Source: Podospora anserina
Lineage: Eukaryota
Direction of reading: 5' to 3'
DNA: 64,000 nucleotides
Assembly: GCA_017654855.1 (NCBI GenBank)
Contig: CM030332.1
Coordinates: forward strand, 7,068,001 to 7,132,000
Position 1 is the first letter of the stretch. Each line of letters opens with the position of its first letter. The notes under the pieces were generated by a model. It did not search any database. It was not told where the DNA came from and saw only the letters and a program-made list of their open reading frames with translations. A program made the position numbers and the translations under genes. Shown piece by piece: positions 1 through 3,840 of the stretch.

Positions 1-1961
1 GCCGCCTTTGATGGTCTCAAGCTCGCAGCACCGCCCGGCATGGGCATCCTCGACAGTCCCGTCAAGCTGGGTCGCCCACAAAGCGTTGCGGCCCCATTAT
101 CTCCTGGCAAGAGCAACGTGCAGCATTTCGAGGAGGGGCCATCGGCCGTTGAGCATAGTCTTGTCCACAAGAACGCCACGCAGGGTGGCAGTCCCCTGAG
201 AAGCCACATGCAAGAAAACACACCACCCATCTCGCTGCGCGACCCTTTCCAAGAGCCGACATATCAGCCAAGTCATGCCGCCCTCTCTCGTCAAGAGCTC
301 TACCAGCCACGAGAGCGAGAGAGACCGCAAGGGACTGTCAAGAAGTTCAACACGACACGGGGTCTCACCGCCGAGGAGCGGGAGATCTTGTCAAAGCCAA
401 ACGTTAAGCGCTTGGTCAATGTCACTCAGTTGTGTGAGTCTAGTTTCAGCACTCATGATGAGCATCCCTGCTGATACATACGACGGATAGACTTCCTCGA
501 TTACTACTTTGATCTCCTGACCTATGTCGGTCAAAGACAGAACCGCCTCAGTGCATTCAAGGCGGAATATCCCGAGCCGCCCGAGACCGACCCAGAGACG
601 TACAAGCAAATGTGGTCAAAGTACGCCGGTCGAGAACGCGCCAATCTCCGCAAGAGGCGAGTCCGGTTGAGGCAAGGTGATTTCCAGATTCTCACCCAAG
701 TTGGCCAGGGCGGTTACGGTCAAGTCTTCCTCGCGCAAAAGAAGGATACCAAGGAGGTGTGCGCGCTCAAGGTGATGAGCAAAAAGCTGCTGTTCAAGCT
801 CGACGAGATTAGACATGTCTTGACGGAAAGAGACATTCTGACAACGGCCAAGAGCGAGTGGCTGGTCCGCCTGCTGTACTCGTTCCAGGATGACAAGAAT
901 ATCTATCTTGCCATGGAATACGTACCAGGCGGTGACTTCCGGACGCTTCTCAACAACACTGGGGTGTTGTCCAACAGGCATGCACGGTTCTACATCGCGG
1001 AAATGTTCTGCTCGGTTGATGCCTTGCACCAGCTGGGCTACATTCATCGCGATCTCAAGCCGGAAAACTTCCTGGTCGACTCCACCGGCCATGTGAAGCT
1101 CACTGATTTTGGCCTGGCGGCCGGTTTCCTCGCACCCGCTAAGATCGAGTCGATGAGGATCCGGCTGGAGAAGGCGTCCGAGACGTCGGTTCCGTTCGGT
1201 AAGCCAATGGACCAGCGTACGGTGGCAGAGCGTCGGGAGGGATATCGGTCCATGAGGGACAAGGATGTGAACTACGCCAAGTCGATTGTCGGCTCGCCAG
1301 ATTACATGGCTCCCGAGGTGCTCAGGGGAGAGGAGTATGACTTTACGGTTGATTACTGGAGTTTGGGGTGCATGTTGTTTGAGGCGTTGACGGGGTTCCC
1401 CCCGTTTGCCGGCAGCAACGCGGATGAGACGTGGAGGAATCTGAAGCACTGGCGGGACGTGCTGAAGAGGCCGGTGTGGGAAGATCCGAGCTACTTTTTG
1501 AGCAACCGGACATGGAACTTTATCACAACGTGAGTACCACCCACCATAAAGGCAACGTTGTCGGGGATCAGAAAACTGACACAGTTCGAAGTTGCATCAA
1601 CTCCCGATCCAAGCGCTTCTCCAATATCAAGGATATCCAGAACCACCCCTACTTTGCCGAAGTGGACTGGGAAATACTCAGAGAGACCAAGGCGCCGTTC
1701 GTCCCCGAGCTCGACTCCGAGACGGACGCCGGCTACTTTGACGACTTTTCCAACGAGGCAGATATGGCCAAGTACAAGGAAGTGCACGACAAGCAGCAGG
1801 CACTTGAGGGCATGGCCGACAGGGATGATGAGATGAGCAAGAGCTTGTTTGTCGGGTTTACCTTCCGGCACCGCAAGCCGGCGAATGAGGATGGCAGCAG
1901 CCCAAGAAAGAAGATTCCGTTTGAGGAGGACGCGGCCCCTTCTTTTGGCACCATGCTGTAG
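1..1961 (+). CDS. dbf2: NDR/AGC-family Ser/Thr kinase Dbf2/Dbf20 (mitotic exit/septation), 5'-partial; exons <1-433, 491-1529, 1592-1961
   Basis: Frame 1 is open from base 1. Splicing intron 434-490 (GTGAGT..CTGAT..TAG) restores VTQLYFLDYYFDLL. Kinase motifs GQGGYG, HRDLKPEN, DFG and GSPDYMAPE are present. Intron 1530-1591 (GTGAGT..CTGAC..AAG) joins the AGC C-terminal tail with the hydrophobic motif FVGFTF. TAG stop at 1959-1961. Confidence 0.93.
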
Positions 1962-3840
1962 GCTCAGCAGAGGAGGTCCAAGGGGGCGCATTTGCAGTCC
2001 TCGCCTGGGAAGCCGAGGGACTGGATGAAGGAGCTGAGGGTGGCACAGGAAGAGGTGGAGAGGAGAAGGAGGGAGTTTAAGTTGATGTGAGGGAGGTTCT
2101 GTTCAATCATATTTGTGCTTGTATTTGATTACCTTACTAGCCTTGAGTACTTGGTTTAGTGTTTGCATTGCTTTTCGAGGGCCGCGGCGTCGTTGATGCG
2201 TTTTCACAGGGAAGGGGATAGATGGCGGGAAGGCAAGGCAAGAAAGGCAAGCAGGATAATTGTGTTAGTTTACCGTAGTATGAACTTGTACTTTTGTAGA
2301 ACAACAGGTTGTGGGTATGTCAGCAAAGCAAGGGGAATATCTCATGCCTTGGTGACAAGTGACAAGTAACAGTATCACACCACATTGTCGTCGTCAGCCT
2401 GGATGTAAACGGTTGGCCAATCCAACACCGGGATCTAATCTTGAGATGTGATCTCCACTCTGGGCCCAGTTTGATGGAATCGATAACTTATTCTAATCCC
2501 TGAGGGCGATCATGTTTGTCACGATGGCTTGGCATTTGTAACAGATTCAGGGCACCCTCGCAGCCCTAAAGATGGAGATTTTGGGTATGAAAAGGAAAAA
2601 AAAGATATCCACCAAAGACGTCATTGGATGGAAAGAGCCAGGGGGAAAAAGGTAAATAAAGAATTAAGTGACGACGCTTCAAGGTGGTGGGTGGAAGTTG
2701 AGATGGAACTAGCCGGCCGGTGTGTTTTGGGACTGACACTGGCCCCGACAACGCTCTTGGATTTGGCATCTGGCATGCGCAGCCGACACATGCGAGCTCT
2801 CTCTAGCATGTCGTCCATCACAGACAGACGTGCTGCTGCTCACATGTAGCTACACGGCAGGCAGTGGCAGGTAGCAAGACCGACGCCCAATCGCTTCTGA
2901 CTTTTGGCTTTGCTCCCCGAAAACAGTACGAATGCATTCCCCACCCCAGCCCTGCCGCCTTACCTCTCGGTCCCGAGAGTGATTTTCAGGATTTCTTTCA
3001 AGGATCTGGAGCTGAATAGATGAGATGGTATTCGAGAAGGAAAGGCTCAACACGCTCGGTGTTTTTCGGCCCGGTCCCGCTGATGTATTGCGTGGCCGTC
3101 TTGGCGGTACGAGATCGGGGCATTCTTTTGGTAGAGCCGCAAGCAGGACAACATTCCCATAGGGTTGCTATTTTCAACCACAGGTATCTAGTTAATGTAG
3201 GTGCCGTACACGGCAAAGAAAAGGTATGGATTGCCAAATGGACGCGCGGCATATCAGTCCCAGTGGCGTCTCTAGTCTCGAACACGGCAGTTGGACGATG
3301 TTGTTGCTCAACAGGAACCCAACAGCCAGATGCCTGACGACAATCCGAGCTTTTTTTCTTTCATTCTTGCTCTGATCATCCCAACTCAACTTTGCTCGGT
3401 CGAGGAGCTAGCGACCTCGGGGCTAAAGCCAGACCTGCAGCGTCCGTCATAGCTCGGCGCCCATAGCCTTCCGTTGTCGTCTTAACGTTGGGCAGACCGA
3501 AAGATTGGACTGCTTGGACTTAGCACTAGTTGGTCCGCTTGAAGATCCCGCACCTCCACCTCTGCCGTCTGCCGTATCGCCCGGGTGAGATATGTTATTT
3601 GTTGTTTTCTCCTTGTATCAGCCTCACTGAGGTACTTGTCGATCGGTATGGTATAACGTAGGGGGTTATATAAAACCCCCCTCCCACCATCCCTTGTTTT
3701 CCTGTCTTGTGTTGTCTCATCCCAACCTCTTCACTTCTCTCCCCCACCTCCCACCTCCCACCTCACCTTGTTATCCTCCTCTCCTCCAACCTCATCGTCA
3801 ACGCTACTGCTCTTTTATTGTCCCTTCCTTGACCATCAAA

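Follow-up and report, generated by a model that had tools for sequence, protein, structure and literature searches.

The closest described system is the DBF2 gene of Fusarium graminearum, for which Du et al. (PNAS, April 2026; PMC13123824) reported that the UAG stop codon is converted to UGG by editing that begins 5 days after fertilisation, that the edited kinase gains a destabilising tail of 24 amino acids (aa) and that kinase dosage falls during ascospore delimitation. As described there, a TAA allele in which editing to sense is blocked gave 31% abnormal asci with faulty encapsulation of one nucleus per spore, while a TGG allele was normal sexually and the constitutive edited isoform impaired vegetative growth and septation. 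The tail reduced the abundance of both Dbf2 and green fluorescent protein, was only partly replaced by scrambled, FLAG or distally truncated tails, and drove a degradation that was insensitive to proteasome and autophagy inhibitors (PMC13123824). The same report gives editing at the DBF2 stop in eight Sordariomycetes, namely Pyricularia oryzae, three Fusarium species, Chaetomium globosum, Sordaria macrospora and two Neurospora species, four of the eight being Sordariales; among the Sordariomycetes surveyed, the DBF2 stop was TAG in 94% and was placed in a hairpin loop in 82%, and the tails were coil-rich with low sequence conservation save among close relatives. Editing of this kind follows cis rules, U at position -1 and hairpin loops, and is made by Tad2/Tad3 with sexual-stage short isoforms and cofactors (PMC11156358). 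Here we analysed the DBF2 locus in a stretch of 64,000 nucleotides (nt) from Podospora anserina (contig CM030332.1, positions 7,068,001 to 7,132,000), called the window below, and compared it with this system. The Podosporaceae lie outside the eight species with evidence for DBF2 editing, and our literature search found no adenosine-to-inosine (A-to-I) editing map for Podospora; genes encoding adenosine deaminases acting on tRNA (ADAT) are up-regulated during perithecium development in P. anserina, as stated in a preprint (10.1101/2024.12.09.627484).

Positions 1-1961 of the window hold the 3' part of a Dbf2/Sid2 kinase gene, the window opening inside the gene. The identity of the gene, its UAG stop, the hairpin around it, the open frame behind it, the transcription of the tail region and the conservation of frame and motif in related loci were all observed. 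Taken together with the published ortholog, they suggest that A1960 is probably edited in perithecia by Tad2/Tad3, which would give a Dbf2 of 707 aa whose tail of Trp plus 42 residues would lower kinase dosage at ascospore delimitation. The features that bear on this reading are as follows.

1959..1961, plus strand: canonical UAG stop with A1960 as the editing candidate (UIG in place of UAG, decoded as Trp); seen in the sequence, TAG in 14 of 15 close relatives.
1954..1969, plus strand: hairpin with a 5-bp stem TGCTG/CAGCA and a 6-nt loop UAGGCU; from the fold, stem columns pairing in 76.7% of 90 cells.
1932..1989, plus strand: imperfect outer part of the hairpin, pyrimidine-rich on its 5' side and G-rich on its 3' side; from the minimum-free-energy fold.
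1962..2087, plus strand: 42-codon extension; open frame, inside the RNA contigs of four runs, tail alignment A2.
2022..2024, plus strand: Trp21 of the tail; W51 of alignment A2, in at least 90% of 14 rows, a weak sign as W aligns easily by chance.
2070..2087, plus strand: tail-end motif R-E-F-K-L-M, adjoining the second stop; in frame 0 in eight lineages, with synonymous codons.
2088..2090, plus strand: second stop TGA; seen in the sequence, TGA following the motif in most motif-bearing lineages.

The minimum-free-energy fold of 1925-1995 (-27.8 kcal/mol) contains the hairpin, in which TGCTG at 1954-1958 pairs with CAGCA at 1965-1969, as well as outer pairs out to about 1932/1989, and so confirms the structure that the first-pass annotation, made from the letters alone, had drawn around the stop. 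The A of the UAG is the second base of the loop, and its probability of being unpaired is 1.00. Among the 869 TAG trinucleotides of the window, the A falls in any hairpin loop in 33% and in a loop of 3-8 nt closed by at least five contiguous pairs in 50 (5.8%), and only 0.2% lie in a 61-mer folding at -27.8 kcal/mol or lower. The 42-codon extension up to TGA 2088-2090 is present where that annotation had placed it: the frame behind the TAG reads AQQRRSKGAHLQSSPGKPRDWMKELRVAQEEVERRRREFKLM and then stops, so that the predicted edited isoform amounts to 664 + W + 42 = 707 aa. A search of the tail against Pfam returned no family.

The gene itself is firmly placed. Exons 1-433, 491-1529 and 1592-1958 together code for some 600 C-terminal residues of an NDR-family kinase, Dbf2/Sid2, and the kinase exon is 91-99% identical over 345 aa to Sordariomycete proteins named dbf2, sid2 or DBF20, the 99% being reached with P0151, the representative of a 90% cluster whose named members come from Podospora fimiseda, Triangularia setosa and Cladorrhinum spp. 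As judged by this membership, the host of the window belongs to the Podosporaceae (Sordariales). Pfam domains Pkinase and Pkinase_C are recorded on Dbf2 orthologs (precomputed), and the C-terminus of the window protein, FGTML, agrees with the FGTM[LFI] that ends 125 of 135 annotated orthologs. By these sequence comparisons the product is the NDR-family kinase of the septation/mitotic-exit network, and its UAG is orthologous to the published FgDBF2 editing site. One member of the window Dbf2's cluster, P0275 (724 aa), is longer by 60 residues at its N-terminus and has no start Met; this surplus looks like a gene-model artefact, and its C-terminus is a normal FGTML. The parts of the gene and transcript are given below.

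1..433, plus strand: DBF2/sid2 coding exon; open frame, matching residues of the 664-aa cluster member P0271.
434..490, plus strand: inferred intron 1, GT..AG; joining 433 to 491 gives ...NVTQL-Y-FLDYYFDLL as in P0271; outside RNA contig coverage.
491..1529, plus strand: kinase-domain exon; 99% identity to P0151.
1530..1591, plus strand: intron 2, 62 nt, GT..AG; one RNA contig per run joins 1529 to 1592 in four runs.
1592..1958, plus strand: last coding stretch, ending ...SFGTML, with Pkinase_C; from Pfam and the FGTM[LFI] end of 125/135 orthologs.
2091..2377, plus strand: rest of the 3' untranslated region (3'UTR); contigs end at 2323, 2363 and 2377, and one continues to 2668.

Four sequencing runs, compared over 1300-2700 as consensus contigs, were identified as RNA because each holds a contig that joins 1529 to 1592 with intron 2 removed. 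In all four the spliced contigs cross the stop and the whole extension, with 3' ends at 2323, 2363, 2377 and 2668, and since they run past 2090, the tail region lies inside the transcribed mRNA, in its 3'UTR. In run X1 one contig (depth 149) continues through 2378-2668, the other three runs ending between 2323 and 2377; this continuation may stem from a longer 3'UTR isoform, from transcription reading through or from a transcript that overlaps.

Compared with FgDBF2, the window locus has the orthologous gene and stop, a UAG with its A in a predicted hairpin loop, and an in-frame tail that leads to a downstream stop. The tail is longer (W plus 42 aa against 24 aa), its distal half is predicted with modest confidence to be helical, in contrast to the coil-rich disorder described for FgDBF2, and editing at the window site is proposed by orthology, where the eight published species have RNA evidence (PMC13123824). 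The correction of a premature stop in PUK1 of F. graminearum and Neurospora (Liu et al. 2016, PMC4817773; PMC11156358), as reported, would share with the Dbf2 case the Tad2/Tad3-dependent sexual-stage machinery, the change of UAG to UGG and the cis preferences; PUK1 editing restores an interrupted frame, whereas Dbf2 editing would extend an already complete protein. The suspicion voiced in the first-pass annotation that related cases may already be in print thus proved right, at least as far as the text of Du et al. (PMC13123824) shows: the mechanism is known from that 2026 paper, and what is probably new is the window Dbf2 site as an instance of it.

To place the stop and tail among relatives, metagenome contigs were scanned with the last exon, which gave 80 loci. 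Of these, 56 end in FGT[MI][LFIV] directly before the stop and 46 of the 56 are distinct; the 24 dropped loci comprise three without a stop in the locus and 21 in which the match ended short of the C-terminus or the residues before the stop were off-pattern. Those at or above 77% identity, 15 of the 46, are termed close relatives and the remaining 31 distant. Named by their best-matching Dbf2, the closest loci are Cladorrhinum-like L016 (99%), Cercophora-like L003/4 and L010/12, Lasiosphaeria/Echria-like L001/2, Rhypophila-like L005 and Chaetomiaceae-like L006-9 and L017; Fusarium-like L011/14 are 94% identical to Dbf2 of F. poae/graminearum. The stop was TAG in 14 of the 15 close loci, and the 31 distant ones had TGA in 16, TAG in 11 and TAA in 4, with tails of 21-98 codons in close and 0-54 codons in distant loci. 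This reproduces the trend described by Du et al. In 18 sequences, the five stem columns of the window hairpin pair in 76.7% of the 90 cells, as against 32-64% when the columns are slid.

The comparison is most striking in the tail itself. Of 12 distinct Sordariales-like lineages, 8 carry the pattern R-E-F-x-L in frame 0 (the window, L016, L001/2, L003/4, L010/12, L008, L009 with Leu changed to Ser, and L023), the distances from the stop being 31, 31, 36, 43, 55, 61, 72 and 91 codons; no occurrence falls in frames 1 or 2. There are thus at least six distinct spacer lengths, all of them multiples of three, for which the rough chance is (1/3)^6. The codons of the motif residues vary synonymously (AGG/CGG/CGA, GAG/GAA, TTT/TTC and TTG/CTT/CTG), as would be expected under selection for the peptide and not under selection for an RNA sequence. 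In six or seven of the eight motif-bearing lineages a TGA follows within 0-1 codons of the motif, counted as R-E-F plus three residues. Over seven lineages the stop-free frames combine to p=0.018, or 0.038 when L023 is counted as a failure, values that treat the lineages as more independent than they are, L003 and L010 being related. Between L010 and L012, the closest pair, the tail of 270 nt shows no indels, compared with six, all single-base, in the next 300 nt. Protein-guided dN/dS (the ratio of nonsynonymous to synonymous substitution rates) came to 0.24-0.69 in the tail and 0.02-0.10 in the last exon; the alignment biases the ratio downward and synonymous sites are saturated, so that these values carry little weight. 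We read the comparison as a tail most of which appears to drift, with its frame, terminal motif and second stop kept.

AlphaFold2 run on a 14-row alignment predicted coil at tail residues 5-19 and one helix at 20-40, with a confidence score (pLDDT) of 56-76 over the tail block (mean 64). Of the helix- or coiled-coil-like character first ascribed to the whole tail, a distal helix is thus retained at modest confidence, while the proximal tail is predicted to be coil; the model lends no support to a coiled coil.

Several of the related tails differ in ways of their own. In L010/L012, from position 1864, CGA replaces the TGA that follows R-E-F-E-L-L-S in L001/L003, which keeps the frame open for about 24 further codons, to 90 in all. 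L023 (1879-2130) has a second in-frame TAG after 54 codons; when this is read as W, the frame goes on to ...ARREFRLM, and the second TAG may be a tandem editable stop or mark a decayed tail. The Rhypophila-like tail in L005 (1867-2025) has 52 codons, ends at another TAG and holds no R-E-F motif, 264 nt of downstream sequence being available. The Fusarium-like loci L011 (519-590) and L014 have a 23-codon tail, DEPQIPQSVVGWRGFVSREKALF, which together with W equals the published 24 aa in length; it ends in R-E-x-x-L-F, loosely like the Sordariales motif.

The motif could also say something about how the tail acts. We put forward, tentatively and with the odds somewhat against it, that the Dbf2 tail across Sordariales keeps its frame and ends in a recognition module, either a C-terminal degron or a site at which a dedicated factor docks, and does not merely destabilise regardless of its sequence. 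This module would consist of the Trp, then 15-70 residues and R-R-E-F-x-L-L/M directly before the conserved TGA. A weaker echo may be seen in the Fusarium-like locus, whose tail ends ...GWRGFVSREKALF at its stop. If this proposal were true, the native tail would be only partly replaceable by scrambled, FLAG or truncated tails because the module is the recognition signal. A word search of the main text of PMC13123824 found no mention of R-E-F-x-L, and SI (supporting information) Fig. S8 of that paper may already show the motif; the conserved tail-end motif of Sordariales may therefore be the one point in our comparison that goes beyond that main text.

For the window gene the switch would then work as follows. 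In developing perithecia, a sexual-stage form of Tad2/Tad3 would deaminate A1960, which stands after a U in a hairpin loop resembling an anticodon loop. The resulting UIG would be read as Trp, and ribosomes would go on for 42 codons to the TGA at 2088-2090. The tail of W plus 42 aa would act in cis as a destabilising element, so that Dbf2 dosage would drop at ascospore delimitation, and vegetative cells would retain the stable, unextended kinase. The editing, its stage, the enzyme and the destabilisation are carried over here from the literature. An A-to-I stop-loss switch on Dbf2 in the sexual stage, as proposed in the first-pass annotation, is supported both by the published ortholog and by the conservation of frame and motif. 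That annotation had left open whether the tail alters localisation, stability or regulation during spore delimitation; by analogy with FgDBF2, lower protein stability is the likely effect, and a new activity or an altered localisation is not.

Tails of similar consequence are known outside fungi. In animals, stop-codon readthrough into the 3'UTR adds C-terminal tails that lower protein abundance, mostly seen as quality control of errors and often dependent on hydrophobic tails. In contrast, bypass of the Dbf2 stop would be developmentally programmed, and the Dbf2 tail is a charged one that has a short hydrophobic end.

No tail was found to be hard-coded: none of the 135 annotated orthologs continues past FGTML, and no relative with TGG in place of TAG was seen among the best 150 of 672 representative hits, in which no match extended beyond query residue 122. 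The missing hard-coded tails fit the vegetative harm that a constitutive extension is reported to cause in F. graminearum (PMC13123824).

Among the other explanations, the one that survives best is that the UAG is an ordinary stop followed by an ordinary 3'UTR, the hairpin and the frame arising from base composition, pyrimidine-rich before the stop and purine- and G-rich after it, with little or no editing, or non-adaptive editing noise at a low level. We consider it improbable, though a real contender; the following results weigh in its favour or against the switch. The hairpin is no more stable than expected from its own dinucleotide shuffles (z=-1.08, 27 of 200 at least as good); among the TAGs of the window it is rare. 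The open frame by itself is likewise unremarkable, with P=0.157 (15.7% of 5000 composition-preserving shuffles keep 41 codons): the stretch behind the stop is purine-rich (0.70), frames 0, 1 and 2 are open for 42, 21 and 38 codons, and several minus-strand frames are also open. All four RNA contig sets read A at 1960 and no other letter, as consensus contigs that drop minor variants and carry no stage information, so that this reading is compatible with editing as well. The UAG is conserved in the close relatives; hairpin-loop placement of its A (folds of 30 nt on either side) holds in only 5 of 15 close and 10 of 31 distant loci, no more than the 33% background of the window TAGs and far below the published 82%, and the nearest relative, L016, is without the hairpin. 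Covariation in the stem was insignificant (155 of 500 shuffles were as good), consisting of one G-C to C-G change in three sequences. As to a coding signature in the extension, the kept frame and motif in 8 of 12 lineages speak for it, but frame-agnostic counts gave no clear third-position excess in the tail, and in L010/L012 the tail has diverged about as fast as the downstream UTR (11 of 270 against 7 of 156 sites). L005, L007 and L017 lack the motif, L006 has it in degenerate form, and in L023 it sits behind the second TAG and is not terminal. An ordinary stop, however, leaves without account the use of TAG in 14 of 15 close relatives where distant ones mostly have TGA, the in-frame R-E-F-x-L at six distances with synonymous codon changes, and the editing of the orthologous stop that is reported for four other Sordariales (PMC13123824).

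In the same region, a 203-codon stop-free frame lies on the minus strand of the window at 1491-2102, antisense to the DBF2 end and the tail; it is probably a result of base composition.

A much smaller chance attaches to programmed ribosomal readthrough of the UAG without editing, by which the tail would be made and its conservation would reflect the readthrough isoform. The conserved frame and motif indicate a translated tail and are silent on how the stop is bypassed. Stops prone to readthrough are typically UGA-C, or stops followed by C or by CARYYA, and TGA is the leakiest stop; the window stop, a UAG followed by GGCUCAG, does not match these contexts. Moreover, the conserved stop is specifically TAG, the only one for which A-to-I editing yields a sense codon, and not TGA, and the TAA allele of F. 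graminearum, with no editing to sense, produces the defect (PMC13123824). The same small chance attaches to a 3'UTR RNA element, a non-coding protein-binding or localisation signal at about 2067-2090: this block, though it adjoins the conserved TGA and the whole tail lacks a clear third-position excess, is always in frame despite its varied spacers (rough chance at most (1/3)^6) and differs by synonymous changes, including first-position ones (AGG/CGG, TTG/CTG), in a way that an RNA element would not preserve.

The editing switch on Dbf2 bears on questions beyond the gene. Through it, removal of a stop by stage-specific RNA editing would set how much of an essential cell-division kinase is present, and the conflicting demands of growth and reproduction would be resolved with no need for a duplicated gene. 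A published comment doubts that stop-loss editing is generally adaptive, yet calls the DBF2 case compelling (PMC13684035), and a reply has appeared (PMC13684032); if confirmed, the kept frame and terminal motif would be relevant to this debate, in which stop-loss tails are taken either as selected or as noise. If confirmed, the motif would also point to the residues behind a degradation that is so far unexplained. The window locus would extend the DBF2 stop-loss pattern to the Podosporaceae, in which a genetic model is well developed.

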